Of a stretch of DNA of 64,000 bases, positions 12,332-62,312 are shown piece by piece; the first letter of the stretch is position 1; every line of letters starts with the position of its first letter. The DNA is from a virus (taxonomy: Duplodnaviria; Heunggongvirae; Uroviricota; Caudoviricetes): the IMG/VR virus record IMGVR_UViG_3300031134_000466. One strand, 5' to 3'. Under the pieces are notes generated by a model. That model saw nothing but the letters and a program-made list of their open reading frames with translations. It was not told where the DNA came from and made no database searches. The position numbers and the translations under genes were made by a program.

Positions 12332-13324
12332 ATGTCAGAAGAAAACAACCTCGAACCTCGTGAGCAGCAGCACCCAGCTTATGAGGCAATCAACTGGAAC
12401 AACGTCGATGAGTTCGACAACGCTGTTTGGCAGAAACTTACCAGTAACTTCTGGTTGCCAGAAAAAGTCTCTGTTTCCAACGACCGTAAAACATGGGAAA
12501 CCTTGTCTGATGCAGAAAAGAAGCTGGTTCTCCATGTCTTTACTGGTCTGACAATGCTTGACACCATTCAGGGTCGTTTCGGTGCTTTGAGTATTATGAA
12601 AGATGCAACTTCGTTGTTCGAAGAAGCTGTGTACACAAACATTGCGTTTATGGAGAATGTTCACGCTAAGAGCTACTCTTCTATCTTCTCTACTCTGTCC
12701 ACCACAAAGGACATTAACCAGTCCTTCAACTGGTCACAGCATAATGAGTTCCTTCGTAAGAAGGAAGAAATCATCATGTCCTACTACCGCGACACCGAGC
12801 ACCCTTTAGCTCCTCAGCGTCGTAAGATTGCTTCAACCCTGCTTGAATCCTTCTTGTTCTACTCAGGTTTCTACCTTCCTCTGTACATGAACTCACAGGC
12901 TAAGCTCACAAACTCAGCTGACATCATCAAGCTGATTATTCGTGACGAAGCAGTTCACGGTTTCTACATTGGTAAAAAGTACCAGGACAGCATTGAAGAA
13001 CTGGATGAGGCTACTAAAGCTGAACTCAAAGACTTCACCTACGAATTGCTTCTCGACTTGTTCGATAACGAAATTCGTTACACTCAGGACTTGTATGATG
13101 AGTTCGGTCTTACCGAAGACGTAATTGCTTTCTTGAAGTACAACGCAAACAAGGCTCTTGCTAACTTGGGCTATGAGCCTTTGTTCCCTGACCCTGAAGT
13201 ATCTGCAGCTATCACTTCGCAGCTCAACGCAGGTTCTGACACGCACGACTTCTTCAGTGGAAGTGGAGCATCCTACGTGATGACCACTCGTGAAGAGTTG
13301 GCTGAAGAGGACTGGGACTTCTAA
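12332..13324 (+). CDS. nrdF: Class Ib ribonucleotide reductase beta subunit
   Basis: Close match to the NrdF N-terminus (AINWN...WQKLTSNFWLPEKV...FTGLTMLDTIQG); AAGGAAA SD. Confidence 0.9.
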   Translation: MSEENNLEPREQQHPAYEAINWNNVDEFDNAVWQKLTSNFWLPEKVSVSNDRKTWETLSDAEKKLVLHVFTGLTMLDTIQGRFGALSIMKDATSLFEEAVYTNIAFMENVHAKSYSSIFSTLSTTKDINQSFNWSQHNEFLRKKEEIIMSYYRDTEHPLAPQRRKIASTLLESFLFYSGFYLPLYMNSQAKLTNSADIIKLIIRDEAVHGFYIGKKYQDSIEELDEATKAELKDFTYELLLDLFDNEIRYTQDLYDEFGLTEDVIAFLKYNANKALANLGYEPLFPDPEVSAAITSQLNAGSDTHDFFSGSGASYVMTTREELAEEDWDF

Positions 13325-13350
13325 TCTACACTGACATGTAGCTTCTTAGG

Positions 13351-13387
13351 AGGGCTGACACTGAATACAAATTTTCAGTGTCAGCCC
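13351..13387 (+). terminator. Hairpin terminator after nrdF
   Basis: agggctgacactga/tcagtgtcagccct 14-bp perfect stem. Confidence 0.6.
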
Positions 13388-13615
13388 TCCTTGTGTTAAC
13401 AGACCAGAAACGTATCCCATTAGCCGCAGACGCCCATCTGCTGCCCTAATACCCTTCATTCACTCAAGTGGACGGCTTACACTACCCAACCTCTTAGACG
13501 CCGTTTTAGTAAGAAACTGCTTTATAGGGTTACCGAGTTGCATTCTTCGGACCTTCCTGCTAAGGTAAGGAACATACAGTCCTTATTCGTTCCACCAGGA
13601 AGAAACAAAGCTTTT

Positions 13616-14050
13616 ATGTTTGATGAGATTGGCTCGGCGCCTCAGACCCGGTACAAGCCCCGTGCGGGCGTTGTGCAGTTCCCTGAGAAGACTGCTCTTT
13701 CCAACCGTCAGCGTTCCTACCTGGATATTGCTGTTCGCCTCGCTGAGTCCTCGGATGCAAGCTTCAAGCACGGAGCAGTTATTGTTCGTGGCGGCAGCGT
13801 TCTTGCTGTCGGAGTGAACAAGTGGAAGAATCGTGACCTTCCTCCGACTCCCCCTGATGTGTACAACCCTGACATCACTGTCCACGCTGAGATTGATGCT
13901 CTTTCCCGAGTGAAGGACGCTCGCGGAACCACTGTCTACATTGCCCGAGTCACCCGTAGCGGCGACGAGCGTTTCTCTCGCCCCTGCAACCGTTGCGAGA
14001 AGGCTCTCATCGAGGCTGGAGTCAAGCGGGTCGTCTACACGGTAGGCTAA
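13616..14050 (+). CDS. dCMP/cytidine deaminase family protein
   Basis: HAEIDAL and PCNRCEKAL zinc motifs; start chosen at the Met with an upstream AGGAAGAAA SD (the ORF is open from 13538). Confidence 0.75.
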   Translation: MFDEIGSAPQTRYKPRAGVVQFPEKTALSNRQRSYLDIAVRLAESSDASFKHGAVIVRGGSVLAVGVNKWKNRDLPPTPPDVYNPDITVHAEIDALSRVKDARGTTVYIARVTRSGDERFSRPCNRCEKALIEAGVKRVVYTVG

Positions 14051-14127
14051 GACAAATAATTCCTAAGGCTGAACGTTTTACTGATAAAGTAAACGTTCAG
14101 CCTTATCTGTTTAACGAAAGAACCCTG

Positions 14128-14343
14128 ATGACTTGTCCACACTGTGCAATGGTAAACGAATGGCATCAATACAATTGCCCCACTGTACCCAAATTCGAAG
14201 ACATCTATGATGGACACCATTATTGGATTGCCTTCATGGATAGCCCTTATGCTTCATGTGCCTGGTGTGGAAAGATGAAAGGCAAACTTTCGTCAGCCCC
14301 AGATGCCCAATGTCGAGGAATCGTAAGAGTAGGATTACGTTAA
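14128..14343 (+). CDS. Small Cys-rich (zinc-ribbon-like) protein
   Basis: CPHC...C-x-C...CAWC pattern; weak RBS. Confidence 0.35.
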   Translation: MTCPHCAMVNEWHQYNCPTVPKFEDIYDGHHYWIAFMDSPYASCAWCGKMKGKLSSAPDAQCRGIVRVGLR

Positions 14344-14386
14344 CTGAAAGAAGCCCTGACTTATAACCAGTCAGGGCTTCTTTCAG
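14344..14386. terminator. Bidirectional hairpin terminator
   Basis: ctgaaagaagccctgac/gtcagggcttctttcag. Confidence 0.6.
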
Positions 14387-14394
14387 TTAATCAG

Positions 14395-16512
14395 TTACAG
14401 TTCACGACGACCTGTACGCAGTTCACGAAGCATACGCTCGTAAGCATATCCTGTCATTTCAGCGTCATTGTAAGCACGGTGAGCGCCAAGGTAAGGAACA
14501 TTGTAGCGGGCAGTGAATGAAGAGAGCTTATCGTTCGGAACATCAGTCAGAAGACGACGAGACAGTTTCAAAGTGTCAAGAATTTTGATTTTCTTGTGCT
14601 TCACAGCATCAGCAAAACCAGGAACATGTGTGGACATCCAACGCTGTTCAAAAGTCTTGTTGTGAGCCATCATGATACCAACATTTGTCAGCTGGTCAAG
14701 AACAGCAGTACCTTCAGCAGGGTTCAAGAACTGACGCTTCTTCGCAATCTGAGTTTCAGTAATACCATGCACTTCACTGTTGCCTGTGCTGCGAGTCAGG
14801 AGAGCTTTCTTCGAAAGACCGTAAAGCTTGCTTGTCTTAGCTTTCTCAGTGTCATTACGAGTCAGAGTAGAGTTACGGTAGTTGGTACGAACGGATGCAC
14901 CATACTCGATGATGCTACCTGAAGTAGGCTGAGAACCGGCAGTTTCCAAATCAACACTCACATAGTCAGGAAGCGTTTCCTGCTTAGCTGCCGTGACGTA
15001 GAGGCTACGAAGCTGAGCCGCAACATAGGTTCGGTCTTTGCGATTCTCATCATCGAAGTTGCCAGCAAACTCCTGCTCAACAACCTTAGAATCAACACCA
15101 CGCATTGTTGCAACTTCAGTGAAGATTTCCTGCTTCTCTTTGTTACTCAAGCTGGAGTTCAGAGCGTTCTGAGAGAAACCACGAGCGCGGTTACGTCCTT
15201 CCCAAGTACCAGCCTTACGGGAAGCAAGCTCGGTGTTGAACTTCTTCACAGCTTCAAGGTTGCCAGCAGCTTCCTGCTCAAGCTCAGGAGTCATAGTGAA
15301 ATGGTATTCACGGTATTCACGGTCGTCAATGACAACTGCAACCATACCACGCTTGAAACCAGCAGCCTGAGCATACCAAAGAGTCTGAGCTCGGTAAGTG
15401 TCAGGAACACCATCCAAACCATCTTCAGGGTTACCCCATTTGCCAGCAACAGAAGCAGTCTTGATTTCGACAATACCGTCAGGGTTACCATCCTTGTCAG
15501 CCATCAGACCGTCAAAGTTAGCAAACTGGAACTCGTTCTCGTTGTGCTTCCAAGAAGACTTGCAGAAAGTGATGTTGTCGTCAGGGTTGTTCTGCACAAC
15601 CTGGAGGAAGATTCGCTTCTCCCAAGCGTTACCACGACCAGCCGCGCCAGCATACTCTTCGTTGTTCAGTGCCTGCTCAGCAACCTGCTCATCAGTGATG
15701 GGTTCAAGCTTGGACTGCATGATTTCTTCATAGCTGTTGTAAGCACCCTTGACTCGCTTGATGGCTCCAACATCTGAACCACCAATACCTTTCTGACGCT
15801 GCTCAAGCCATTCACGAGTACCTGACTCGAACTCAGCAGTCTTAGTGAGTTCATTCAGCGTCTCTTTGTCATACTCACGCCATTCGCCAGCTTCACGAAG
15901 ACGGTTCTCTTCAAGGTCGGCAAGGTGAGCCACAACAGGTGCTGCAACGTCTTTGTACTCGTTAATCTGACGGCGGAGGAGACTGACTTCTTCGTTGATG
16001 TCAATCATCGCAAGTTCCTTCTGACGAACATCTTCGTAAAGGAACGCAGGGTCTTCTTCCCACTTCTTCTTCAGAAGGTCACGGTCAGCTTTAGTCTCCT
16101 CAAGAAGCTGCATGTTTGCATCACGCTTCTCAAGCAGGGCAGTAAAGTCTTCAGAGTTGATACGGTCCTGGATGAAGCTTTCCATGGCTTCCTCATCACC
16201 TGATTCAATCAGGCGGGCAGCTTCAGCTTTATCCTCTTCAACGGTCTTCAGAGCTTTCTGGTGACCGTAGGAACTAACAGGAGTGTAGGTACGCTCCATA
16301 GCTTCCTTCAAAATAGACATAGCAAGCAGGCTCTCAACATCGTTTGTGTTGTTCAGCTGCTTCTCAACCAGCTCAGCATTCTTGTGCTGATGATACTGGT
16401 ACTCAGTCATGTGTTCTCCGTTTATCAGTGTGCATTTCTTCTGTGCAGGGCAACGGACCCAATCGCCTTGCCTCTTGCCTGATTGCTGTTTATGGTAGTT
16501 CTTCATGGTCAA
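14395..16512 (-). CDS. Fusion protein: coiled-coil N-terminus, YqaJ/lambda-exonuclease-like PD-(D/E)xK domain, and C-terminal DnaQ-like 3'-5' exonuclease
   Basis: YqaJ motifs DGxxDGIVEIKT and YRAQTLWYAQAAG; DEDD motifs DLETAG (Exo I), HNKTFEQRW (Exo II), HRAYNDAEM (Exo III). Confidence 0.75.
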   Translation of the reverse strand: MTMKNYHKQQSGKRQGDWVRCPAQKKCTLINGEHMTEYQYHQHKNAELVEKQLNNTNDVESLLAMSILKEAMERTYTPVSSYGHQKALKTVEEDKAEAARLIESGDEEAMESFIQDRINSEDFTALLEKRDANMQLLEETKADRDLLKKKWEEDPAFLYEDVRQKELAMIDINEEVSLLRRQINEYKDVAAPVVAHLADLEENRLREAGEWREYDKETLNELTKTAEFESGTREWLEQRQKGIGGSDVGAIKRVKGAYNSYEEIMQSKLEPITDEQVAEQALNNEEYAGAAGRGNAWEKRIFLQVVQNNPDDNITFCKSSWKHNENEFQFANFDGLMADKDGNPDGIVEIKTASVAGKWGNPEDGLDGVPDTYRAQTLWYAQAAGFKRGMVAVVIDDREYREYHFTMTPELEQEAAGNLEAVKKFNTELASRKAGTWEGRNRARGFSQNALNSSLSNKEKQEIFTEVATMRGVDSKVVEQEFAGNFDDENRKDRTYVAAQLRSLYVTAAKQETLPDYVSVDLETAGSQPTSGSIIEYGASVRTNYRNSTLTRNDTEKAKTSKLYGLSKKALLTRSTGNSEVHGITETQIAKKRQFLNPAEGTAVLDQLTNVGIMMAHNKTFEQRWMSTHVPGFADAVKHKKIKILDTLKLSRRLLTDVPNDKLSSFTARYNVPYLGAHRAYNDAEMTGYAYERMLRELRTGRREL

Positions 16513-16555
16513 TCTCTAACCTACCGCATTAACGTTTGAACCGCAAATCGAGCTT

Positions 16556-17479
16556 TTAGTGAAGATGGGAGAAGTTTTTTACAGCATCAACAGAAACACC
16601 GTTGACTAACGGCTCTAACTCTTTAAGGAAAGAGTTCAGTTCACCTTCATCAGTAGCATGGAGTGTTTTTGAAGCGATTGTCAAAGCTCTACGACCAAGA
16701 AGAAGAGCTGCAAACTGATTCAAACCGTAATCACTCACTGATCTGCCCAGAAGAGTCTCATATTCTTGACGAGCAACTGTCCACAGTTCAGGACGACGCA
16801 TCCGGTGAACCAGGTGAAGATACAGATGAGCTAAATCATATTCGCGTGGAGCAGCTCTTGATTCTTCGAAGGAAGTCCAGACAACACTGTAGTCTTCTTT
16901 CATCACTAAGTTCTCTGGTGTGGCACGTCCATGACTGACAACATTGATTTCAGGTGTTGAAGAAATCATGTTGGTAACAGGCTGAATAATTACTTTGAAC
17001 AAATCCCGTAAACGGTTCTGATTCTCAGCAGTCAAATACTTGAACGAAGGAGAACCCAGCTTCTCTCCGTAGCGTAAGTAGTCATCATTGGAGCTTTCAT
17101 TCAACTGAGGATACTTCAAGCTGTTGTGGATGTAGAACAGTTCCCGTGCTGCGTGAGCTGCTTGCATGGGGTTCATGTTAGTCCCAATTGGATACAGACG
17201 TTCCCATTCCCAAGCGGACAGTACAAGAGGTAACCCTCGTGATGACCTATGGTGAACATTGTCGAATAGAGGGTTTGTACCGTAAGTGGTGTTTACTGCG
17301 AAATCAATTTCTGTTTGCAGAGGAGCTGGGTTAGTTTCTGGCCGGAGGAGCTTGACAAATACACGTTCGTTATCACTGAGAATGTGATGAGGGGAACGGT
17401 TCAAAGAGTCTAATCTCACGATACCGTAGGTGATGTAATTCTGGCTAAGAATTCGGCACACTTCGTGAACAAGATTCAT
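16556..17479 (-). CDS. Kinase-like (APH/ChoK-fold) phosphotransferase, possibly catalytically divergent
   Basis: HGRATPEN in place of the HGDxxPxN catalytic loop; DLAHLY downstream. Confidence 0.4.
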   Translation of the reverse strand: MNLVHEVCRILSQNYITYGIVRLDSLNRSPHHILSDNERVFVKLLRPETNPAPLQTEIDFAVNTTYGTNPLFDNVHHRSSRGLPLVLSAWEWERLYPIGTNMNPMQAAHAARELFYIHNSLKYPQLNESSNDDYLRYGEKLGSPSFKYLTAENQNRLRDLFKVIIQPVTNMISSTPEINVVSHGRATPENLVMKEDYSVVWTSFEESRAAPREYDLAHLYLHLVHRMRRPELWTVARQEYETLLGRSVSDYGLNQFAALLLGRRALTIASKTLHATDEGELNSFLKELEPLVNGVSVDAVKNFSHLH

Positions 17480-17597
17480 GGGGGTTGGCGACTTCTTTCT
17501 TCCAGGTGCAAAGGCGTAACCCTTCTATTATCGGGTAATGAAAGCCTTACTGCAGAAACTGTGGCAAAAAGAGTTGATCCGATAGACTATTTTTACT

Positions 17598-18269
17598 ATG
17601 ACTGATAAGAAAACCTACCCCTCCCCTTCACTCCTGGTCCTTGCTTTCCACGAAACCTACGGCCAGCCTGTTCGCACTGAACCTGTTTATGATGTTCCTG
17701 AGAAGCTTATGCGATCCGAACTGATCCTTGAAGAAGCAAGCGAGTTCTGGGACGCCAACAAAGCTAACGATTTAGTCGAAATGGCTGATGCTTTAGCTGA
17801 CCTTGTTTACGTAGCTTACGGTGCAGCAATCACCCATGGTGTCGACGTTGACGCTTCCTTCGGTGGACACAAAGAAACCCCTGCTGAGGTCTTGCGTGTT
17901 GTTCACCGCCGCCAGCGTCAGAAGATTCGTCCAATTCCAACATTGAACGTTCTTTCCCGCAACATGACTGCCTCAGGTTTGAACAAAACAGCTGTTGCTT
18001 ACGACAACTACGTTCGTCACACTCTTGAAGGTAACCCAGACCAGATTCGTGCGTTATTGACCACAATCATCTCCAGTGCTTACTTTGCAGCTTTTTCCTT
18101 AGGCATCGACTTGGATGACGTTCTGGAAGAAGTGCAGCGTTCCAACATGTCCAAGCTTGGTGAAGACGGCAAGCCAATCTACCGTGAAGATGGAAAGGTT
18201 CTCAAAGGACCAAACTTCTTCACACCTGACATTGCAGCTGTTTTGAAGCGTCAAGGTTGGAAAGGCTGA
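17598..18269 (+). CDS. All-alpha NTP pyrophosphohydrolase (MazG / dimeric-dUTPase-like)
   Basis: ExxE and ExxD metal-binding helices (LILEEASEF, LVEMADALADL). Confidence 0.5.
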   Translation: MTDKKTYPSPSLLVLAFHETYGQPVRTEPVYDVPEKLMRSELILEEASEFWDANKANDLVEMADALADLVYVAYGAAITHGVDVDASFGGHKETPAEVLRVVHRRQRQKIRPIPTLNVLSRNMTASGLNKTAVAYDNYVRHTLEGNPDQIRALLTTIISSAYFAAFSLGIDLDDVLEEVQRSNMSKLGEDGKPIYREDGKVLKGPNFFTPDIAAVLKRQGWKG

Positions 18270-18293
18270 AAAGCCCTGAACATTGAATTGTAA

Positions 18294-18328
18294 TTTTGTC
18301 CCCCACAAGAACCTTGTGGGGGACAAAA
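18294..18328 (+). terminator. Hairpin terminator
   Basis: ttttgtcccccacaag/cttgtgggggacaaaa. Confidence 0.6.
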
Positions 18329-18429
18329 TACTTTAATAAACTTTCACTCACCCTTGGTTCAAACTGGCTTTTGTCGGAGGTTTCCGATAGAATAAAGTAA
18401 CCCAGTAAACAAGAAAGCAGGCACATTCG

Positions 18430-21147
18430 ATGGCCACCCTCATCGGCGTATCAGGAAAAATTGCGTCAGGTAAAGATTACTTGACTGACAAGCTTGTAAA
18501 CGAACTGAAACGTCTTGGTTTTACCATCGACTACACAGCCTTCGCTGCACCCCTGAAGCAGGAACTCAACGAAATCATCTCTCTGATTCGAGCTTTCCCT
18601 GAACAGGATGAACTGACTCTTTCTTTCTCCATCGCTCGTAATCTGGACATCAACTACGATGATGCTCTTCTGATTGCTACTAATCTGAGAACAGAAGTGC
18701 TTGCAGATGAAACTCTCAACGGTTACTCACGAACAGTCAAAATTCGTGAATCTCTTCAGTATCTTGGTACAGAGATTCGCAGGAAGCAGCGTCCTGAATA
18801 CTGGACTGACTTGTTCTTGAACTTCGTCAACAATTCAGAAACAGATTTCATTTTCGTTTCAGATGCACGTTTTCCTAATGAAATGGACACGGTTGTCGAC
18901 AATCAAGGTGTTGCTCTACGTCTTGACATTCCAGAAGAAGTTCTTGCAGAGCGTCGAAACAAGCGTGACGGCATCAAATACACTGATGAGCAGTTGAATC
19001 ATATCTCAGAAACTGCACTGGATGATTACACCAAATTTGACATGATGATTGGTGTGCAGTTCAACGAACGTGAAATCGTAGAGAATATCCTGAAAAAAGT
19101 TGAACGACTTCAGGAACTTCCTGCAAAAGCTTCTCGCGTCCTGAAAGCCAAAATCGCAGAGCATACACCTTCAGTGTCAGATAAGAAAGATGTTTACCCA
19201 GAGGTGAATTTACCTGAAGGCCAGTACAAAGTGTTGTCTTTGTTTGCAGGTGCAGGTGGATTAGATTTAGGTTTTGAGTTAGCTGGATTAGAAGCAGTTC
19301 ACGGTAAAGAAAAAGTGGACGCTGCTTACAAAGACAAAAAAGCATTTGACGAGCTCCGCAAAGAGAACCTCATTCACACGGTCTACGTAAATGACAACTT
19401 CAAAGATGCAATAGCTTCCTACCGTCAGAACTTTCCTGAAACGTTTATTGACGAACGAGATATCAAAAAAATCAGCAGCTTCCCTGATGCAGACCTTCTG
19501 TTAGGTGGATTCCCTTGCTTCCCTAAAGGAACAGGTGTAGCTACAGAGACAGGTTACAAAAACATTGAAGATGTCGAGAAAGGTGATTTTGTTCTCACTC
19601 ATGAAGGTCGTTACCGTGAAGTAACAGACACCATGACACGCAATGTGAACAAATCAGCCACTCTACATGCTTACGGTTCTCTTCCTTTGGTCTCAACGGT
19701 GAATCATCCTTACTGGGTGAAAGAAACTGTCGATTCTGAACCTAAATGGGTTCATGCTGAGAACATTCAGCCAGGTTGGTTTGTGTCTCATCCAATCAGC
19801 ACATTCAGTACAGATGAAGTAACCGAAAAAGAAGCCAAGTTTGCTTACTTAGCCGGCGTCTTCGCTCAGTGTGGTACAAAAACTTTGAACGACGAGCACA
19901 AGCCAAGCTATCTCACTCCTTACAATGATGAGGAGTTCCTGGCTTTGCTGGCTGAAATTGATGCTGTCTGTTCAAAAGAAGGCAAAAACGTCATCGTCCA
20001 CAGTGAACAGCTGAACAAGATGATGAAATTGTTCGGAACTACCAAATGGAACAAAGTCATTCCTGAAGAGGTCCACCAGAAACCACGAGCTTGGCAGAAA
20101 GCTTTCCTTGACGGCTTCCTGTTCCACAACTCTGACCAGGAAGTGCACAGCAAGAACTTGGCTGTTGGCGTGGCTCGAATTATTCGTAGTTTGAACCCTA
20201 CACAGGATGTTATCGTGTCCTCACCCAAATACAGTTCCTGGATTGTAACTGCAACTGACACTACCGTAGCTCATCATGATGACAACTATGTATGGGTTCC
20301 TGTGGAGCGTTTGCAAGTAAGAAACGAAATGGGAGTACTTCCTGTTTACGATATTACTGTAGCCGAAGACGAATCATTCGTAGCAGATGGATTTGTAGTT
20401 CACAACTGCCCTGGCTTCTCAGCAGCAGGTCTTCGCATGTTAGATGACCCTCGCAACTTCCTGTACCTGCATTTCGTACGAGCTGTTGTTGACGCTCAAC
20501 CAAAGATTTTCGTAGCAGAAAACGTAAAAGGTCTACTCACTCATGGTCAAGGTGAAGCTTTCAACCAGATAGTCGAAGACTTTGCAGCAGCAGGTTACAC
20601 CATCTACTACAAGCTGATGAAAGCAATTCAGCATGGTGTACCTCAGATGAGAGAGCGATTGATTATTGTTGGTGTGCGAAACGACATTGATTTTGAATAC
20701 CAGCATCCTGCTGCCACTCATGGTGAAGGTCTACTTCCATACAAAACTCAAAGAGACGCTTTCTACGATTTGAGGGACCTGAACGATGAACACTACGAAG
20801 GAGACTTCTCTTCTCGCTACCGTTCCAGAAGGTTCAAACTGGACTGGGATGTACCGTCAAAGACCATTTTGGCAACAGGGCGGCACCTGCCTTTGCACCC
20901 TGACGGAGTGCCTCAGGAGAAGCTGGAGCAGGACTTGTGGAGTTTAGACGCTGCAGACCGTAGATTCACTGTAAGAGAAGCTGCACGAATCCAGACATTC
21001 CCTGACTGGTATGATTTCGTGACAACCTCTCGCGGAACAACCAACACAGTCCTGGAGAAACAGTACCGTCAGATAGGTAACGCTGTTCCTGTCGAACTGG
21101 GACGAGTTGTTGCTGAACCTATTGTTCAGTTCCTGAAAAGTCTGTAA
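18430..21147 (+). CDS. dNMP-kinase-like P-loop domain fused to a C5-cytosine DNA methyltransferase interrupted by an intein
   Basis: GKIASGKD P-loop; MTase motif I FAGAGG, motif IV GGFP|C...N|CPGFSAAG split by the intein, motif VI ENV, motif VIII QHGVPQMRER, motif X GNAVP. Confidence 0.85.
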   Translation: MATLIGVSGKIASGKDYLTDKLVNELKRLGFTIDYTAFAAPLKQELNEIISLIRAFPEQDELTLSFSIARNLDINYDDALLIATNLRTEVLADETLNGYSRTVKIRESLQYLGTEIRRKQRPEYWTDLFLNFVNNSETDFIFVSDARFPNEMDTVVDNQGVALRLDIPEEVLAERRNKRDGIKYTDEQLNHISETALDDYTKFDMMIGVQFNEREIVENILKKVERLQELPAKASRVLKAKIAEHTPSVSDKKDVYPEVNLPEGQYKVLSLFAGAGGLDLGFELAGLEAVHGKEKVDAAYKDKKAFDELRKENLIHTVYVNDNFKDAIASYRQNFPETFIDERDIKKISSFPDADLLLGGFPCFPKGTGVATETGYKNIEDVEKGDFVLTHEGRYREVTDTMTRNVNKSATLHAYGSLPLVSTVNHPYWVKETVDSEPKWVHAENIQPGWFVSHPISTFSTDEVTEKEAKFAYLAGVFAQCGTKTLNDEHKPSYLTPYNDEEFLALLAEIDAVCSKEGKNVIVHSEQLNKMMKLFGTTKWNKVIPEEVHQKPRAWQKAFLDGFLFHNSDQEVHSKNLAVGVARIIRSLNPTQDVIVSSPKYSSWIVTATDTTVAHHDDNYVWVPVERLQVRNEMGVLPVYDITVAEDESFVADGFVVHNCPGFSAAGLRMLDDPRNFLYLHFVRAVVDAQPKIFVAENVKGLLTHGQGEAFNQIVEDFAAAGYTIYYKLMKAIQHGVPQMRERLIIVGVRNDIDFEYQHPAATHGEGLLPYKTQRDAFYDLRDLNDEHYEGDFSSRYRSRRFKLDWDVPSKTILATGRHLPLHPDGVPQEKLEQDLWSLDAADRRFTVREAARIQTFPDWYDFVTTSRGTTNTVLEKQYRQIGNAVPVELGRVVAEPIVQFLKSL
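19516..20406 (+). mobile_element. Intein (297 aa, Cys1 ... His-Asn, +1 Cys) inserted at the catalytic Cys of MTase motif IV
   Basis: N-terminal splicing block CFPKGTGVATETG...GDFVLTHEG; C-terminal VVHN followed by extein Cys; removal restores GGFPCPGFSAAG; degenerate LAGLIDADG-like blocks (YLAGVF, FLDGFLF). Confidence 0.8.
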
Positions 21148-21762
21148 TCAGTTGATGGCGTGAATGCGGTTCAACGGCCACATCACGAACTTAGGCTGGC
21201 CCAGGATGCTATCCACTGGCACGAAAGGGTCATTAGGGTGGTACCTGGAGTCAGCTGAGTTCAACCGGTTGTCGCCCAGGACAAACACTTGCCCTGCTGG
21301 GACAGTGTAAGAGAATTCTTTGTTGACATCGTTCACACCATCTTTGATGTAATTCTCATTAAGTTCCTCGCCATTGAGAAGAAGCTTCCCATCATCAGAG
21401 CAGCAAGAGATGGTGTCACCACCAACAGCTATCACACGTTTCACAAACACTGTTCCAGCAGGTTCACCCCAAGATGCTGGAGGGTTGAAAACGACAACAG
21501 TGCCACGGTCAGGAGCCTGCCTGTTGTCCAAAGCAGGAACAGATACCATGTAATCCTTGACTTGCAAAGTATTCGTCATGGAGGAAGAAGGGACAACATA
21601 GCTGTCCACGAAGAATAGATTCAGAATGATTCCTACTACCAGACCAAAGATGATCGTGTCGAGGAAACCAATTTTGTGTTTTTTCTTAGAACGAGTTACA
21701 ACCTCAGAGGAGGGGGTAATGTCGTCGTCCATCAAAATTCTTCCTATCATTACAGTAACCAT
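21148..21762 (-). CDS. lepB: Signal peptidase I (S26 family), actinobacterial-type
   Basis: SSMTNTL Ser box, VKRVIAVGGDTI box, GDNRLNSADSR box. Confidence 0.85.
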   Translation of the reverse strand: MVTVMIGRILMDDDITPSSEVVTRSKKKHKIGFLDTIIFGLVVGIILNLFFVDSYVVPSSSMTNTLQVKDYMVSVPALDNRQAPDRGTVVVFNPPASWGEPAGTVFVKRVIAVGGDTISCCSDDGKLLLNGEELNENYIKDGVNDVNKEFSYTVPAGQVFVLGDNRLNSADSRYHPNDPFVPVDSILGQPKFVMWPLNRIHAIN

Positions 21763-21881
21763 TCTGGGTACTGGATCGTTCTATATGTCTGCCGTGCTGA
21801 TATTAGAAACAGCAGCAAAGTGGGCTAAATCAGAAAAACTGTAGAATAGCTACAGTGTAACACAACAAATTAGGGTTTTCA

Positions 21882-23186
21882 TTGATTTCAACACTACGAC
21901 ACTCCCAGAAATTTCAAGACAGCTTTGTTGTCTGGATTTTTGTACTTCTTTTCGCCGGTCAGGGTTTCAGGAACCTAATCGGCCTCATCTGTTACGGCAC
22001 TATCAGCCTGGTGACTGTAAGCGTAGCCGTTTGGCTCTTTTGGAATACCTGGAGTAAACGCCGAACCCCGTTTTTGCTGGGTGCTTTTGTAACTTTAGCA
22101 GCTCTGTCCACAATTTGGTCCACTTACCGTCTGGAAACATTCATAGCCAGTATCATTCTGGCGGCCACCAGCCTCATAGGACTTTTAGTTGCCTCAGCTT
22201 ACAAATGGAAAAAACTGATAGTCCTTTTAGGTTACGGACTGCAAATCTGCGTGGTCGGCAGTTTAGTCTTTGAAACAATCGTCGCCACTGTGTTTAGGAG
22301 ACCAGTTCTACCTGTCTTCATGGAATTTGTGGGCCTTACTGACATTGAGAAAAATTCTGGTGTGTTGAACTGGTCAGAGAACAATTTGTTTGCAGGTGGT
22401 CCAATTCAGGGTTTCATGGGTAACAGAAACTTGTTAGGTTTTGTTGCATTGCTTCTAATTGTTGTGTCAGTAGTGACTTTGTTGGAGAAACTCACAAACA
22501 AATGGGTGAGCCTTAGCTGGATAGCTGTAGGGTTAGGAACACATTTTCTGACAGTCTCAGCTACCATCTCTTTGGCTCTGCTGGCTGTTGTCATCATCGT
22601 TGCTGGTGCGATGTTTATACGATTTACGCCAGAAAAGTTCAGACGGATAACATCCTGGTCCTTCGTGGGACTCTGTATCGTTCTTGGTGTTGCTGCGTTG
22701 AAGAACTACGACAAACTGTTTGGTGTTTTTGACCGTGACCCGAACCTTACTAACCGCACTGAAATCTGGAAACGAGTGGCTGATCTGGCTTTGCAGAAAC
22801 CTGAAGGTTGGGGATGGGTTAGTTACTGGCCTGTATGGAAAGAGCCTTTCAACGGAATACTCACATTAGGTGGAGTGCCTGTAGCTCATGCCCATAATGC
22901 ATATTTGGATGTATGGTTCCAACTGGGTGTAGTTGGCGTCATTCTTCTAGCAGCTATGACTTTGTACATTTTAGGAAGCTCTTGGCGTTTAGTGGAACAT
23001 GCAGGAAGGAGTTCAAGCTTCTTACCTCTTGGTTTGTTCCTTCTTGGTGGTTGCTTGTTCATTCAAGCTCTTACAGAATCCCGTCTGCTACTTGAGGGTA
23101 ATTGGATGCTGTTGACTGTGTTGCTTGTGTATACGCCATCTGCTTTCCGAAAAACAAACCTGAAGGCGTTAGAGCCGATATCGTAA
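21882..23186 (+). CDS. O-antigen ligase / Wzy-like polytopic membrane protein
   Basis: At least 10 TM helices; AHNAYLDVWFQLGVVGV O-antigen-ligase family motif. Confidence 0.65.
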   Translation: MISTLRHSQKFQDSFVVWIFVLLFAGQGFRNLIGLICYGTISLVTVSVAVWLFWNTWSKRRTPFLLGAFVTLAALSTIWSTYRLETFIASIILAATSLIGLLVASAYKWKKLIVLLGYGLQICVVGSLVFETIVATVFRRPVLPVFMEFVGLTDIEKNSGVLNWSENNLFAGGPIQGFMGNRNLLGFVALLLIVVSVVTLLEKLTNKWVSLSWIAVGLGTHFLTVSATISLALLAVVIIVAGAMFIRFTPEKFRRITSWSFVGLCIVLGVAALKNYDKLFGVFDRDPNLTNRTEIWKRVADLALQKPEGWGWVSYWPVWKEPFNGILTLGGVPVAHAHNAYLDVWFQLGVVGVILLAAMTLYILGSSWRLVEHAGRSSSFLPLGLFLLGGCLFIQALTESRLLLEGNWMLLTVLLVYTPSAFRKTNLKALEPIS

Positions 23187-23188
23187 CC

Positions 23189-23380
23189 ATGACTACGAAT
23201 GACCTTGCTCCCATGCAACTACCTCCTTTTAAAGAGGGGGAAATGAAGAAAGTTGCTTTAGGGTTCCGTGAAGTTGACGGTAAAGTGGAAGTGACAGTGA
23301 CTTCACACAATATGAACGATGATATTAACGAAATTGCTGTGTTCTTGTCATTTGCGTTGGAAAAAATGCTCGAAGACTGA
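23189..23380 (+). CDS. Small hypothetical protein
   Basis: ATG directly after the stop of the previous gene. Confidence 0.35.
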   Translation: MTTNDLAPMQLPPFKEGEMKKVALGFREVDGKVEVTVTSHNMNDDINEIAVFLSFALEKMLED

Positions 23381-23433
23381 TATGGTGTGCAGCAGATAAG
23401 ATTTTTCTTGCTATCTGTTAGGAATACAAAACT

Positions 23434-24246
23434 ATGTGCAAACGCAAACCATACCCTCGTTGCAGCTACCATGCTCGCATCAAACTTGAAGCTGCAGAAA
23501 AGTCTGGTGATCTTGAACGCATCAAGCTTGCAAGAAGGAACTATTTCACTTCATTAGCTGGTATTGCTGACCTCAAAGCTCAGGGTAAAGATGCATTAGC
23601 TGCAAAATATGAGACTCGTAGAGCAAATCTCATTGCTCAAGCTGAACGTGAGACTAACCTCCGCAAGACACCCCTGGTTTTGGCGTTGGATGTAGACAAC
23701 ACCAGTGGTGACTTCACAGAATCCATTCGTAACCATGTCATGAAGACACAAGGACTTACTCCTGAACAGGCTGAAACACTTCTTCCTAGCCCTCCAACTC
23801 ACTACTCTTTCGTAGACTCAGGCTGGTTCACTGACGTTAACTCATTCCTGGATGCTTTCCATTCAGCGGAAGAGAATGGTGTTTACTCCAAGATGAAAGC
23901 TTTTGACGGAGTAAGCAAGACTCTTCGCACTTTGGTCAGTAATCGTGACGTTGAAGTTCGTGTTGTGACGGCCCGTGGTAACAGATGGAATGAAGAGACC
24001 CGTCAGTGGTTGCGTCGTCATCGTATTCCTTTCACTTCCATCACTCACACTGAGGACAAAGAGAAAGTCCCAGGTATCGATGTGTACATTGATGACTCTG
24101 ACAAGCAGATTAACACTCTGCAGAAGAACGGTAAGACAGTTATTGCGTTCGAGAATGCATACAACGCAACTGTTCCTTCTAAGTATCGTGTAAAGAAGTG
24201 GAAAGAAGTGCCGGCAGTTCTGAAACTCATCGCACAAGCCAAATAA
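23434..24246 (+). CDS. Effector-family protein: Cys/His N-terminal module fused to a HAD-superfamily phosphatase (5'-nucleotidase-like)
   Basis: N-terminus MCKRKPYPRCSYHA shared with the ARTs at 30500 and 51758; HAD motif I ALDVDNT, motif IV IDDSDKQ. Confidence 0.7.
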   Translation: MCKRKPYPRCSYHARIKLEAAEKSGDLERIKLARRNYFTSLAGIADLKAQGKDALAAKYETRRANLIAQAERETNLRKTPLVLALDVDNTSGDFTESIRNHVMKTQGLTPEQAETLLPSPPTHYSFVDSGWFTDVNSFLDAFHSAEENGVYSKMKAFDGVSKTLRTLVSNRDVEVRVVTARGNRWNEETRQWLRRHRIPFTSITHTEDKEKVPGIDVYIDDSDKQINTLQKNGKTVIAFENAYNATVPSKYRVKKWKEVPAVLKLIAQAK

Positions 24247-24391
24247 CAAACCATCAATATGGCGGTCCAGGATGCTAATTGTCCTGGGCCGCCCTTGTTT
24301 TCTCAATTAGGTGTTATGGGAACCTGTGAAAAGCTTGTTAATTACCGATACTTTTTTCAGCTACCTAACCCCCTTAGAGAGAAGAATCTGT

Positions 24392-26083
24392 ATGTCTGCT
24401 GGCAGCACGCACCCGACTATTCAAAACTACACAAAAATACGAGCAGCTTTTAGCTCCTCACAAGCCGCTATCGACTTAGCTTCCATCATGGTGGGTGTCA
24501 TCGTAATCGGACTTATTGGTGGAGTAATCTCTGCCACAGTATTCGCTATCATTCCTTGGGCACAGGACAAAGCAGCGAAAGCATCTCTCTCCTCAGTACA
24601 CACAGCAGAATCAGCATATGCTGGGTTCAGTGTTGGTGATGACGGAGAGAAGAAACAAACTTTTGGTAACTACGACGACTTGAAAGCTGAACATGGAGGT
24701 TTGCTTCAAGAATCTGAACGTCTAATAGTTTCCACCGGAACAAACAACAAAGACTGCTATGTTGCTGTCATTACCTCAGAGACAGGAAACCGTTTCTGGA
24801 TTGACAACAAGATCAGTGCACCTCGCATGTACCAAGAAGGTGACCAGTCAGAGTGTCTGAACCTTGAAGACATGTTCGGTGATGACAACGGTGGTATTGG
24901 ATACAACTCCTCCCTTGATGGTACTTACTTCGAAGGGCAAGGTTTTGCAGCTGTTGTTCACATTCGTAACAGTGCAATCAACTATGGTGTTGAACCAGAC
25001 CCAACTTGTGAGCCTACTGACCCAGCCACACAGGTAACACAGGTAAAAGCTTACTTAGACAGTGAAGAAATTGAAATTGCTGGTAGCTGGGAATACATGC
25101 AATCATCAGACGGAATTCAGACAGCAGTAGGCATCCAAACCACTAACGGATACATTGGTGCTACCACAGAGGAAGCTCAAACTTTCGCTGAAAGAGGACA
25201 AGTAATTTTCTTACCAGCTGGTTGTGCTGATTCAATCACCATCAACGTATCAGGAACATCCACTCCTCCAGGTGGTGACGACGGCGGTGGTGACCAACCT
25301 GTTGAACTATGCAGCAAGTACAATAACATGTTCACTGACGCCCAAACAACCAGTGAAACCACTGGAACTACTTTCTATGTTGACCCAAGCTGCAACACCA
25401 GCATGACTGCAATGTTCACATCCTTTGAGTCGATGTTCCAAACAATGGGACAGCCAACACTTACCGCTCGTACTGACGGTTGCTGGTCAGAACAGGGAAC
25501 TTATAAGAAAGTTGCCTGTGACCCAACAGGACAAGCTTACTACTACAGCCCAGGAAGCATGGAACAGTTCTGGACTTCAGCTAACGGAACAACAGTTGAA
25601 TTGTACCTCAACGGTTCAAGTACCCCATTCTTCTCCCAGGCATCAAACACTCCAAGTGAGTTCTACTACGAAGTTCCTCGTGAAGATAGGACAGATTCCT
25701 ACACTCAGAGCTCATACAACGCTGACGCTCCAACTGTCGGAATTGATGTCACAAGTAGCTACAGAATGACCAACTTCTACCGTGCAGCTAAACCAGCTGC
25801 AGGAACAACTTCAAACTCTTGCTTGGATGAACTTCAAGCGGGTAAGCTTCCAACCACTTACCAAGGCGAGTATGGTGTAGCTAACTGCCAAGGTGAAGAT
25901 GACTTCCGTATCTATGACTGGGACATCTCAGGTAACTTCGGTAATGCCGATGAAGCAACTTACGAAAACATCAAAACAGTCAGTGAACAAGGCGGTATGG
26001 TCAAGTTCACAACAACAGAAGGTAAAACTTCAACCATCCAGCTGAACCCAGGAGCTTTGAACCCAGAACCACAAGCTTCATAA
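24392..26083 (+). CDS. Membrane-anchored surface protein, paralogue C, with a divergent C-terminal domain
   Basis: AIDLASIMVGVIVIGLIGGVISATVFAIIPWAQDKAAK matches the N-terminus of 1636 and 2847; GAGAGAAG SD before the Met at 24392. Confidence 0.7.
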   Translation: MSAGSTHPTIQNYTKIRAAFSSSQAAIDLASIMVGVIVIGLIGGVISATVFAIIPWAQDKAAKASLSSVHTAESAYAGFSVGDDGEKKQTFGNYDDLKAEHGGLLQESERLIVSTGTNNKDCYVAVITSETGNRFWIDNKISAPRMYQEGDQSECLNLEDMFGDDNGGIGYNSSLDGTYFEGQGFAAVVHIRNSAINYGVEPDPTCEPTDPATQVTQVKAYLDSEEIEIAGSWEYMQSSDGIQTAVGIQTTNGYIGATTEEAQTFAERGQVIFLPAGCADSITINVSGTSTPPGGDDGGGDQPVELCSKYNNMFTDAQTTSETTGTTFYVDPSCNTSMTAMFTSFESMFQTMGQPTLTARTDGCWSEQGTYKKVACDPTGQAYYYSPGSMEQFWTSANGTTVELYLNGSSTPFFSQASNTPSEFYYEVPREDRTDSYTQSSYNADAPTVGIDVTSSYRMTNFYRAAKPAAGTTSNSCLDELQAGKLPTTYQGEYGVANCQGEDDFRIYDWDISGNFGNADEATYENIKTVSEQGGMVKFTTTEGKTSTIQLNPGALNPEPQAS

Positions 26084-26371: not shown

Positions 26372-27676
26372 ATGGGAAAAATCATTGAAGAGACAATGCT
26401 TGTCATGGTTGACACAAAGAACAACAACAACAAGTTCTACCATGTCACATTGGATGATGCTAACGTCGTCACCAAGCGCTGGGGACGTGTAGGAGCTGAA
26501 GGAGCGAGTTCCGTCGAGACAACAGGCAAGATTGGTTACGAGCGAGCCATCAAGTCCAAAGAGAAAAAGGGCTACAAGGTCTCACCTATTGTTAGCACAG
26601 GTGTCACAGTCAAGAGTTCTGTCAACCACCTTGACGAAGTAGCTAAGAAGTTTCTGTCCAAGGACAGCGGAGACAGCCTTATCAGCAACCTCATTGACCG
26701 ACTCATCGCATCAAACCAGCACCAGATTATGGAGCAGTCCGGTGGTATGATTAAGATTACCGACGACGGAACCGTAAAGACCGCTCTCGGTGTTGTTGAC
26801 CTTTGCTCCATCAACTCTGCCCGAGACCTCATTGGTGAGATGCAGAAGAAGAAAACAGGGCAGACCAAGCTCCTGGAAGATTACCTCACCCTCATTCCTC
26901 AGAACATTGGGTACCGTCGTGGTTGGGAAGAGGACTTCCTGAAGACGGAAAACTTTGCCAAGCAGATGGACTTCTTGAAGCAGCTTGAGGATTCTGTGCA
27001 GTGGCGAAACACCACCGCACAGGTCACCACAGATGACGAAGACAAGTTCGACATCGATGCTCACAAAGACCTGTTCCGCATGAACCTTGCGAAGATTTCC
27101 GACAGCGGAAAAGACTTCGACCGTATCAACAAGATGTTTAAAGAAACACGCAACAACATGCACACATCACGTAACCTCAAACTTGTGAACGTGTATGCAG
27201 TGGAAGATGTCAAGGGCAAGGAAGCTTACGAAGCTGCTCAGAAGAAGTATGGAAACGTACGTGAACTCTGGCACGGAACAAAAGCCTCCAATGTTCTCTC
27301 CATTCTCACAAAGGGATTGTTCGTGCCTAACGCAGGTAGCGGTATCCCTGTGACAGGAAGAATGTTCGGTGATGGTGTCTACTTCAGTGACCAGAGCACC
27401 AAAAGCTTGAACTACGCCAACGGTTACTGGGATGGTTCACGCACCAGCCAGAACTGTTTCATGCTTCTGAACGATGTTGTCATGGGTCATGAGTACCGCC
27501 CTCAGCGTTGGGACTACAGCTCTCTCCGTCAGGCACACAAGGGCGTTGGAACTTCAGGTAAGCCTTACCAGTCCATCAGCGTTCGTGGTGGAACCTGTAA
27601 CGTTCGAAACAACGAAATGATTATTTGGAACACTGACCAGGTGGCTGTACGTTACCTCTGCGAATTTGGTAGCTAA
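26372..27676 (+). CDS. Poly(ADP-ribose) polymerase: WGR domain, helical domain and PARP catalytic domain
   Basis: WGR motif KRWGRVG; catalytic H-G-T, GDGVYFSD, KSLNYA and NNEMIIW aligning to the PARP1 HGS / Y / catalytic-Glu region. Confidence 0.85.
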   Translation: MGKIIEETMLVMVDTKNNNNKFYHVTLDDANVVTKRWGRVGAEGASSVETTGKIGYERAIKSKEKKGYKVSPIVSTGVTVKSSVNHLDEVAKKFLSKDSGDSLISNLIDRLIASNQHQIMEQSGGMIKITDDGTVKTALGVVDLCSINSARDLIGEMQKKKTGQTKLLEDYLTLIPQNIGYRRGWEEDFLKTENFAKQMDFLKQLEDSVQWRNTTAQVTTDDEDKFDIDAHKDLFRMNLAKISDSGKDFDRINKMFKETRNNMHTSRNLKLVNVYAVEDVKGKEAYEAAQKKYGNVRELWHGTKASNVLSILTKGLFVPNAGSGIPVTGRMFGDGVYFSDQSTKSLNYANGYWDGSRTSQNCFMLLNDVVMGHEYRPQRWDYSSLRQAHKGVGTSGKPYQSISVRGGTCNVRNNEMIIWNTDQVAVRYLCEFGS

Positions 27677-30499: not shown

Positions 30500-31465
30500 A
30501 TGTGCTACCCCAAACCTGGTCCTCGCTGTTCAGCTCATGCTGCAGTTAAACTGGCGACTGTAAAACTCGCTTCTACCAGCGGTAGTCAAGATTTTGCCGA
30601 GTACTTAGCTCATCAGGAGCGTCTTGAAGAAGCTCAGCTGGAGTATGACATCACGCCAGCAGGTTTGAAAGATTTACAGGATTTAGTGGGTCAACGAAAT
30701 GACCCTGACGCTGAGCTCCGTTATTCCAAAGCTAAAGCCCTGAGAGCAAAGAAGTTGGCTTTGTTGCATGAAGACCAGAAACAAGAGCAAGGTCATACTC
30801 TTGCAAGGGTTCAAGGGGTAAATGAAGATTTTTGTTCTGATGAAATTGTTCGTTCTAACAAAGATGCTGGAATCACATCCGCAGCTTTAGTAGCTGAAGC
30901 TGAACCGTGGTTTAATCAGTTGAACGATGATGAACTTTCTCAAATGCACTGGATGACCGACTATGGTTCAATGGAAGCTAATACGCACATCGCAGGAACC
31001 AATGACCATAAACGTTTTGGTGGTCTATTCTCTGCAGAGAACTTGGAATCTCGTATGGTTCAAGTTGACTCGGCTTTGAGTAAGTTTGAGTCACATCATG
31101 ATGAAGTTGTCTACAGGGGCTTTCGTGAAGGCTCTCTTCCCTCTGCTATGGCAAACAACTACCGGGTATCAGATGATGTGAAGCAAGCTGCAGTTCTGAA
31201 ATCTTTCACCGTAGGTGAAGTCTACAAGTCTGATTTCTACATGCCAACTTCTGTACAGCCTGAAGAGGCTGCTCGTTTTGCTGATTTCGGTTGCGTCATG
31301 GAAATCAAAACCCGCAAAGCTGCTCCTGTATCTGCCATTTCTGAAGTTCCCCGTGAGTCAGAAAAACTGATTGGTCGTAACAGTGAATTCAAAGTCGTGG
31401 CAATCAAAGAGAACATCATGTACGGCATTAAGAGAATGACTGTTGTTCAGTTAGAGCAACTCTAA
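30500..31465 (+). CDS. Mono-ADP-ribosyltransferase (R-S-E class) with the Cys/His N-terminal module
   Basis: MCYPKPGPRCSAHA N-terminus; VYRGF, MPTSV, ESEKLIGRNSEFKVV. Confidence 0.8.
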   Translation: MCYPKPGPRCSAHAAVKLATVKLASTSGSQDFAEYLAHQERLEEAQLEYDITPAGLKDLQDLVGQRNDPDAELRYSKAKALRAKKLALLHEDQKQEQGHTLARVQGVNEDFCSDEIVRSNKDAGITSAALVAEAEPWFNQLNDDELSQMHWMTDYGSMEANTHIAGTNDHKRFGGLFSAENLESRMVQVDSALSKFESHHDEVVYRGFREGSLPSAMANNYRVSDDVKQAAVLKSFTVGEVYKSDFYMPTSVQPEEAARFADFGCVMEIKTRKAAPVSAISEVPRESEKLIGRNSEFKVVAIKENIMYGIKRMTVVQLEQL

Positions 31466-50666: not shown

Positions 50667-50800
50667 GATTCTAATGTTCCTTAATCGTTGTCAGCTTTAT
50701 GAGCGGTCAAAGAATTCTATCATCAACGGCTAAAGCACATAGTATTTGACAGCTGGCTGGGTTTCATGGTAAGTTGGAGTATCTTAAGTTAGGAAACAAA

Positions 50801-62238: not shown

Positions 62239-62312
62239 TCACAAAAACGTGCTTTTTCGTCAATATGACGATATACTGTAATAAGAATGGTCTAAGGAAG
62301 GAAACCCGTATC

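Follow-up and report, generated by a model that had tools for sequence, protein, structure and literature searches.

A predicted class-1 intein in the catalytic motif of a kinase-fused C5-cytosine methyltransferase, and its persistence beyond the host gene

What is a block of 297 residues doing inside the catalytic motif of a cytosine methyltransferase, and why is it kept in related genomes from which the methyltransferase has gone? The question is raised by a 64,000-nucleotide stretch of DNA (IMG/VR record IMGVR_UViG_3300031134_000466; hereafter the window, meaning the whole stretch), in which one open reading frame (ORF) at nt 18430-21147 on the plus strand encodes a 905-residue precursor with a computed mass of 102.9 kDa. 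The encoded domains are, in order, a deoxynucleoside monophosphate (dNMP) kinase-like domain, a linker, the N-terminal half of a C5-cytosine methyltransferase (C5-MTase), the block in question, and the C-terminal half of the C5-MTase. The block is very likely a genuine class-1 intein whose core has a LAGLIDADG fold, and a member of a large family that targets the Pro/Cys of motif IV in C5-MTases (here and below, a slash marks a splice junction). As part of the same explanation, we place the gene on the chromosome of a small-genome bacterium, in a deoxynucleotide-salvage neighborhood. The window intein itself is ordinary; its retention beyond the host gene is the unusual part.

The host enzyme is recognizable on both sides of the block. 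Pfam DNA_methylase matches in two stretches (E 5.6e-60), one on each side. The N-extein part of the MTase (nt 19201-19515; like all features of this gene, on the plus strand) carries motif I (LFAGAGGLD, nt 19240-19266) and the start of motif IV, GGFP (residues 359-362), which ends at nt 19515. The C-extein runs from Cys660 to the stop codon (nt 20407-21147; DNA_methylase stretch 660-899) and carries motifs VI (ENV, nt 20518-20535), VIII (QMRER, nt 20644-20658), and X (GNAVP, nt 21076-21090), with the target-recognition domain (TRD) between motifs VIII and X. When the block is taken out, the protein has motifs I, IV, VI, VIII, and X plus the TRD, as expected of a C5-MTase (PF00145/TIGR00675). 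The block itself (nt 19516-20406, 33.5 kDa, exactly 297 residues) extends from Cys363 to Asn659, so that motif IV reads GGFP/C363...N659/C660PGFSAAG and is divided between Pro362 and Cys660. Cys660 is thus both the +1 extein residue and the catalytic Cys of the MTase.

The block has the anatomy of a class-1 intein. Pfam Hint_2 begins at its first residue (33.3-34.4 bits; gathering cutoff 28.4), and NCBIfam intein_Cterm, TIGR01443, spans its last 22 residues (intein residues 276-297; 33.9 bits, cutoff 15.6). The full class-1 residue set is present. The first residue, which in this class is Cys, Ser, or Thr, is Cys363; the TxxH of block B is T423-V-N-H426 (intein T61 to H64), within an S-T-V-N-H stretch at nt 19693-19707 that aligns with TDNH, TKNH, and TEEH of related MTase inteins; and blocks F and G (VYDITV...FVVHN, nt 20344-20406) supply Asp279 and the terminal His296-Asn297 in intein numbering, the latter being H658-N659 of the precursor, followed by C660. 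A confident AlphaFold2 (AF2) model built from six members of the window's clade (pLDDT 88.8, pTM 0.85) has the Hint fold. Among PDB structures, Foldseek ranks full-length inteins that carry an endonuclease highest: first PhoVMA and TliVMA (E 6e-15 to 5e-13, TMq 0.65-0.71), followed by PI-SceI, PI-TkoII, and PI-PfuI, the top intein matches as a whole ranging from E 6e-15 to 1e-10; the central domain also matches I-DmoI.

Some observations weigh against this interpretation. Pfam Intein_splicing scored 28.9-30.8 bits on the block, under its cutoff of 35.8, and the NCBIfam N-terminal intein model gave no match on it. A Pro at position -1 stops cleavage in some engineered inteins (NEB IMPACT guidance, Sce VMA); in the present case the -1 Pro is set by the MTase motif itself and is common to all related MTase inteins examined. 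To the same side of the balance belongs the fact that the state of the nuclease core, considered below, is read from motif chemistry.

An empty allele of the same gene exists. The syntenic, intein-free orthologue P0002 has the same kinase plus MTase architecture, an unbroken motif IV (GGFPCPGFSAAG), and a length of 609 residues, compared with 608 predicted for the spliced window product; it scores 210 bits on TIGR00675, for which the cutoff is 100.65. The P0002 locus and the window have a common gene order: ribonucleotide reductase (RNR) small subunit, a YqaJ/RNase_T fusion, a 307-321-residue protein, a MazG-like pyrophosphatase, and the kinase-MTase, then downstream a convergent S26 signal peptidase and NT5C. 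The two loci are a textbook intein presence/absence pair. Because intein-free P0002 already has the kinase-MTase fusion, the fusion is older than the intein. Deoxynucleotide-metabolism genes surround the kinase-MTase gene at window positions 12332-18269 and 23434-24246, a synteny kept in all relatives; they include the RNR small subunit, dCMP deaminase, the MazG-like pyrophosphatase, and the NT5C deoxyribonucleotidase, and the same neighborhood encodes the 705-residue fusion of a YqaJ/RecE-like exonuclease to an RNase_T/DnaQ-like exonuclease.

The first part of the ORF (residues 1-229, nt 18430-19116) is a P-loop domain of the nucleoside monophosphate kinase type, with the Walker A motif GVSGKIASGKD at nt 18445-18477. 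It matches the deoxynucleoside monophosphate kinase family phrog_139 (E 6.7e-28) and, partially, Pfam DNMK (PF21448; 30.6 bits, cutoff 27.1). An alignment of seven orthologues has 73 invariant columns in this domain. Searching PDB sequences with the kinase profile gave a sole match, a weak one to phosphomevalonate kinase (E 0.004), so we refer to the domain as a putative dNMP kinase. The host protein is, then, a dNMP-kinase/C5-cytosine-methyltransferase fusion.

These results bear on the original prediction, which had been made from the sequence alone. Its central proposal, an intein in the PC motif of a C5-MTase with the catalytic Cys as +1 residue, is borne out by Hint_2, TIGR01443, the AF2 model with its Foldseek matches, and P0002; so are the proposed 297-residue extent (nt 19516-20406), with removal restoring the motif as read in P0002, and the N-terminal fusion to a dNMP-kinase-like domain (phrog_139 and Pfam DNMK, the latter above its cutoff). 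The comparison with intein hidden Markov models (HMMs) that it had proposed puts Hint_2 and TIGR01443 above their cutoffs and Intein_splicing below. Its class-1 N-block needs amendment: Cys1 and the terminal HN stand, and THEG (residues 390-393) is not block B but part of an N-terminal β-hairpin signature, GD.VLTH.GRY, common to related inteins. The product masses were roughly as estimated, the approximate 100 giving 67 plus 33 kDa becoming 102.9 giving 69.4 plus 33.5 kDa by computation.

The residues present point to a conventional splicing route, and the window intein is probably splicing-competent. The 102.9-kDa precursor would be translated as a single chain, after which Cys363, helped by the block-B His426, would undergo an N-S acyl shift; the thioester would be handed to Cys660, Asn659 cyclization would free the 33.5-kDa intein, and ligation of Pro362 to Cys660 would rebuild GGFPCPGFSAAG in a 69.4-kDa kinase-MTase, with a predicted junction peptide spanning ...LLLGGFPCPGFSAAGLR. 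Methylation should depend on splicing because the +1 nucleophile is the catalytic Cys and the catalytic loop is interrupted by 297 residues. Indirect support for splicing comes from the MTase halves, both of which are tightly constrained (see below) and so appear to be joined into a working enzyme.

Other explanations for the block were weighed against this one. That it is a domain of another sort, for example a target-recognition insertion with terminal Cys and Asn by chance, is hardly conceivable: matches to curated intein and Hint models exceed the cutoffs, the fold resembles that of solved inteins, each of blocks A, B, F, and G can be identified, and the MTase already possesses a TRD, located between motifs VIII and X. 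The presence/absence pair with P0002, an exact empty allele, refutes a target-recognition insertion; we found no point in favor of this reading and rejected it. A splicing-dead relic, with the gene yielding only kinase or a permanently interrupted MTase, has a precedent in the relatives P0003 and P0005, where an ORF persists after loss of splicing residues. The window and both of its sister strains, however, retain all splicing residues intact, and the MTase halves evolve at omega (dN/dS) 0.004-0.12, which is not expected for a disabled enzyme; we judge a relic to be very unlikely.

Whether the preferred class-1 intein is still a homing element depends on its central part, a reduced LAGLIDADG-fold core at intein residues 98-250 (nt 19807-20265), identified by the AF2 model, the I-DmoI matches, and motif alignment. 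The core has an αββα pattern in the AF2 model, and the two αββαββα half-domains of LAGLIDADG proteins can be traced from the model secondary structure and the matches to I-DmoI and PI-SceI. The acidic residue that ends each LAGLIDADG helix is missing. In motif 1 (LAGVFAQCG, nt 19849-19875) the catalytic Asp is replaced by Cys119 in all six clade sequences, and in motif 2 (LDGFLFHNS, nt 20107-20133) by Asn205, or by Ser in clade relatives, in agreement with the degenerate LAGLIDADG-like blocks of the original prediction. In motif-intact MTase inteins the catalytic Asp is kept at both motifs as part of a conserved Asp-Gly pair (e.g., ..GDGW, ..ADGY). Compared with these, the clade has shortened β-hairpins and a core of 153 residues with an isoelectric point (pI) of 5.1-6.1 (window 5.9) rather than 176-209 residues and pI 9.0-9.6. 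LAGLIDADG Pfam models gave no match on the window intein even at E≤10; LAGLIDADG_3, for instance, matches the relatives P0006 and P0007 (6e-11 and 1e-5).

The acidic residues of LAGLIDADG motifs are needed for metal-dependent cleavage. Because both have been replaced, the nuclease core is read as dead, and homing has probably been lost. Intein divergence follows that of the adjacent kinase domain, and composition is fully ameliorated (GC 44.6% in the intein, 45.0% in the exteins), which together argue for long vertical residence. The competing idea, that the intein is still active and its endonuclease is spreading it into empty C5-MTase alleles, draws on the canonical LAGLIDADG motifs kept by other family members, on the patchy distribution of the family across phages, plasmids, and bacteria, and on the consideration that continued homing would likewise put strong purifying selection on the core. 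Against it stand the replacement of both metal-binding acids in every clade member, the trimmed hairpins and acidic core, and the locus-following divergence and composition just described; active homing is, we consider, very unlikely indeed.

Selection on the predicted dead core was measured at strain level among the window, L039, and L040 (synonymous divergence, dS, 0.3-0.6). Omega was 0.06-0.09 for the kinase, 0.06-0.12 for the N-terminal half of the MTase, 0.004-0.011 for its C-terminal half, 0.02-0.04 for the Hint lobes, and 0.019-0.045 for the homing endonuclease-like core. Among polymorphic codons of the core in the three strains, 41 are synonymous-only and 6 have replacements. The standard homing cycle would not predict constraint this tight once the nuclease is dead.

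Related genomes extend the picture, for the same syntenic slot is filled by four states that lack the MTase. P0004, a complete gene found in three samples, encodes the kinase, a short linker, an intact intein, 'CS', and a stop. P0003 and P0005 are in-frame fusions to the kinase that have lost splicing residues: in P0003, C1 has become Arg, the block-B His Asn, and the terminal Asn Cys; in P0005, which is represented by four closely similar variants (three lie on contigs of 112-883 kb), C1 has become Gly and the C-terminus is degenerate. At the fourth locus, L012, the kinase has a gene to itself and the intein forms a free-standing 314-residue ORF, P0015, which retains the motif IV relic FPKADVVLDGFS/C and terminates HN/CP-stop. 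Between the two lies a pseudogene of the MTase N-half with at least three stops, two frameshifts, and deletions in ~383 nt, whereas the adjoining 891-nt intein has no lesions, although the rate seen in the pseudogene would predict roughly a dozen there. In four lineages the intein has precisely 297 residues and no gaps. Since sister genomes keep the kinase without the MTase, the coupling of the two, which the original prediction had read as hinting at a link between nucleotide metabolism and DNA modification, is not obligatory.

Could the intein, or its endonuclease-derived core, be kept by selection for a function of its own, independent of the MTase? Such an exaptation is compatible with the class-1 intein favored above, and we give it a little less than an even chance. 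Supporting this possibility, the dead-motif core is constrained as tightly as the Hint lobes and more tightly than the kinase, sister genomes without MTase keep the ORF at the same slot, and at L012 it is lesion-free beside the decayed MTase remnant. Relatedly, omega between P0003 and P0015 is ~0.14, with synonymous sites near saturation, and the intein-derived part in the P0005 lineage has 13 synonymous and 10 replacement polymorphic codons, fewer replacements than the ~3:1 excess expected under neutrality. In a neighbor-joining tree of four flanking genes, the window falls together with P0005 (98% bootstrap), as does P0003 with P0015 (100%). This points to at least two MTase losses, which were probably independent, with the caveat that the tree is rooted on a long outgroup branch and that identities taken gene by gene give a mixed picture.

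On the other hand, the short, acidic 153-residue core of the retained domain speaks against the obvious role, DNA binding; we gave such a role less weight on that account, and an exapted function would probably be of another kind. The P0005 lineage shows clear relaxation of selection, with omega of 0.11-0.48 from small counts. Compared with the kinase of that lineage (13 synonymous, 2 replacement codons), the intein part is relaxed yet below neutrality, and decay is greatest in the C-terminal Hint lobe and least in the core. In the deep pairs, where the proportion of synonymous differences (pS) is 0.68-0.82 and dS is near saturation, dN/dS is qualitative only, and the rooting and mixed identities noted above also count against exaptation. 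Slow decay, or some other constraint, is the main alternative. WHO-like homing, by contrast, was rejected for the MTase-less loci, where the catalytic residues are absent. The fuller scenario, in which the clade is a case of bacterial intein exaptation whose dead core is selected and whose ORF is kept after MTase decay, either fused to the kinase with later loss of splicing residues or free-standing, is offered tentatively, as somewhat less probable than not.

How common is the insertion site? An exhaustive profile search with the intein over 1.84 billion cluster representatives gave 6,632 matches; three clade-specific representatives scored ~500 bits, and the next scores were ~150 bits. When the 147 top-scoring cluster representatives other than self were compared with a C5-MTase HMM, 90 matched, and in ~60 of the 147 the intein has the same junction, P/C...HN/C..[FILVM]S, beginning near residue 73-100. 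The closest non-self relatives of the window intein likewise sit at the P/C junction of other C5-MTases. Deposited phage MTases with an intein there, verified by translation, are those of Lactobacillus phage Nyseid, Erwinia phage Yoloswag (gp43), Dickeya phage AD1 (AD1_048), and Yersinia phage fHe-Yen9-02 (gp275); the same arrangement occurs in the Escherichia jumbo phages ph0011, A4, and UE-S1, in Pseudomonas phage Lana, and in an MTase of a Euzebya plasmid. In ten phage records the match covers 99% or more of the window intein, and every one of these matches falls in a cytosine-MTase gene or, within the same phage group, in a gene that lacks annotation. The description of an intein in a DNA MTase active site as uncommon, given in the original prediction, is therefore contradicted by the ~60 representatives and the several phage MTases.

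None of these deposited MTase records carries an intein annotation. Our searches of the literature for inteins together with cytosine or C5 methyltransferases found no paper on a C5-MTase P/C intein, only unrelated co-occurrences and technology papers, and the large intein survey of Novikova et al. does not mention methylases. The methylase inteins described in the literature searched are only in N6/N4-family enzymes of actinophages (PMC5050341, PMC9957025, PMC11855218). The P/C site thus seems to be heavily used in sequence databases yet undescribed.

Two further observations concern inteins and Hint domains elsewhere. P/C-site inteins of jumbo phages (Erwinia phage Yoloswag gp43, L035 381-2489, and related sequences) also have degenerate motifs (LCGHWVSNGT/FIYGFQSRCAS, the slash here separating the two motifs) and an acidic core (pI 5.7), which suggests that nuclease loss at this site happened more than once. 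Another layout is found in L044 (3086-5308), L045 (1527-4580), L046 (1467-4589), L047 (1145-4474), and P0016, where three or four mini-Hint domains stand in tandem after a signal-peptide-like N-terminus; beyond them come a Ser/Gly-rich tract, a transmembrane segment, and a C-terminal domain of ~400 residues. Each mini-Hint unit runs from Cys to His-Asn, and the spacer is only Lys-Gly-Gly-Gly ('...VHNKGGGCFPAGTG...'), so that these proteins resemble mini-intein arrays with nearly no extein in between.

What kind of genome hosts the kinase-MTase gene? The original prediction had framed the fusion in terms of phage anti-restriction. Megablast of window positions 15000-25000 against phages gave no match, and Pfam scans of the window's ~50 ORFs found no virion or packaging genes. 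Cellular-type genes among these ORFs encode DnaK, S26 signal peptidase, Wzy_C, an ABC transporter, an ArsP/DUF1980 permease pair, and a racemase, as well as two NAD synthases, NucS, and RNase H; virus-like ones encode two T4-type RNA ligases, polynucleotide kinase-phosphatase (PNKP), ADP-ribosyltransferases, and PARP. Near-identical and related alleles of the kinase-MTase gene occur on contigs of 0.70-0.88 Mb. The window contains no tRNA genes and no Rfam families at gathering threshold. We conclude that the window more likely comes from a small cellular genome than from a phage, and rejected phage origin as the likelier source on the grounds of the missing phage match, the missing virion genes, and the housekeeping gene mix. 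A giant mobile element may be the source of the DNA.

Several features of the window and its relatives are recorded here in their own right. The two T4-type RNA ligase genes and the PNKP gene form an RNA-repair set within 16 kb (39328-40449, minus strand; 50774-51706 and 54122-55363, plus strand) of a kind more typical of phages. ADP-ribosylation enzymes are unusually concentrated, with a protein combining a PARP catalytic domain and WGR and two ADP-ribosyltransferase exoenzyme-like proteins encoded at 26372-27676, 30500-31465, and 51758-52729; the PARP/WGR gene is also syntenic in L008. The NAD synthase paralogues (56409-57374 and 62265-63158) lie 5 kb apart, and a gene for a cytidylyltransferase-like protein (58101-59624) adjoins. 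At L008 9650-9710, where the kinase-intein gene and the S26 peptidase gene converge, the intergenic DNA has a GC-rich hairpin and then a run of T (AAAAGCGCCGCTTC...GAAGCGGCGCTTTT). It resembles an intrinsic terminator of bacterial type acting in both directions, which would fit a prokaryotic host.

The locus matters in several ways. Many 'cytosine methyltransferases' of 600-750 residues are intein precursors, which bears on annotation and on predicting when such enzymes are active. Post-translational control is possible, since splicing should gate DNA methylation when the +1 nucleophile is the catalytic Cys. A natural series at one syntenic locus, comprising an empty allele, an invaded allele, and a decayed host gene with the intein kept, is rare and speaks to a long-running debate: are inteins selfish elements only, or can they come to be of use to the cell? 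If true, exaptation here would be a prokaryotic counterpart of HO-type domestication, minus the nuclease activity.

Among known systems, the full-length class-1 LAGLIDADG inteins (PI-SceI/VMA1, PhoVMA, TliVMA, PI-PfuI, and PI-TkoII) are alike in having a LAGLIDADG-fold domain inserted in a Hint fold, in C1, TxxH, HN, and +1 Cys, and in insertion into the catalytic motif of a nucleic-acid enzyme. Their identity to the window intein is only 10-17%, and the window intein differs in its reduced 153-residue acidic core, in the absence of both catalytic acids, and in having a C5-MTase as host. The other C5-MTase inteins share the insertion point (P/C...HN/C), the family by profile search, and the N-terminal signature GYKNIED..GD.VLTH.GRY. 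Most of them keep the Asp-Gly pairs and basic cores and are presumably still homing, whereas the window copy, with 22-29% identity to them, is motif-dead, chromosomal, vertically inherited, and in an MTase fused to a dNMP kinase. The actinophage methylase inteins (Kelley et al. 2016, PMC5050341; Gogarten lab 2023 and 2025, PMC9957025 and PMC11855218) also interrupt phage DNA methylases, but their hosts are of the N6_N4_Mtase family, not C5 enzymes, and their insertion sites are different and not at the PC motif.

Bacterial intein-like (BIL) and polymorphic-toxin HINT domains have the Hint fold outside canonical splicing and match the window element weakly in sequence; they are without an endonuclease core and do not sit in conserved enzyme motifs, whereas the window element has full intein anatomy. 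For the retention of the intein after loss of its host gene, the nearest precedent, by analogy, would be HO/WHO domestication in yeast. The HO endonuclease and the WHO elements are intein-derived eukaryotic proteins that lie outside any spliced host protein; they are active nucleases of the LAGLIDADG type and have a C-terminal zinc finger (Coughlan et al. 2020, PMC7282813). The likeness is to the state of P0015, P0003, P0004, and P0005, the only members found outside a spliced host; the window copy remains a conventional intein. Unlike HO and WHO, the bacterial clade has neither the catalytic acids nor a zinc-finger domain, and it is fused to, or stands beside, a dNMP kinase.

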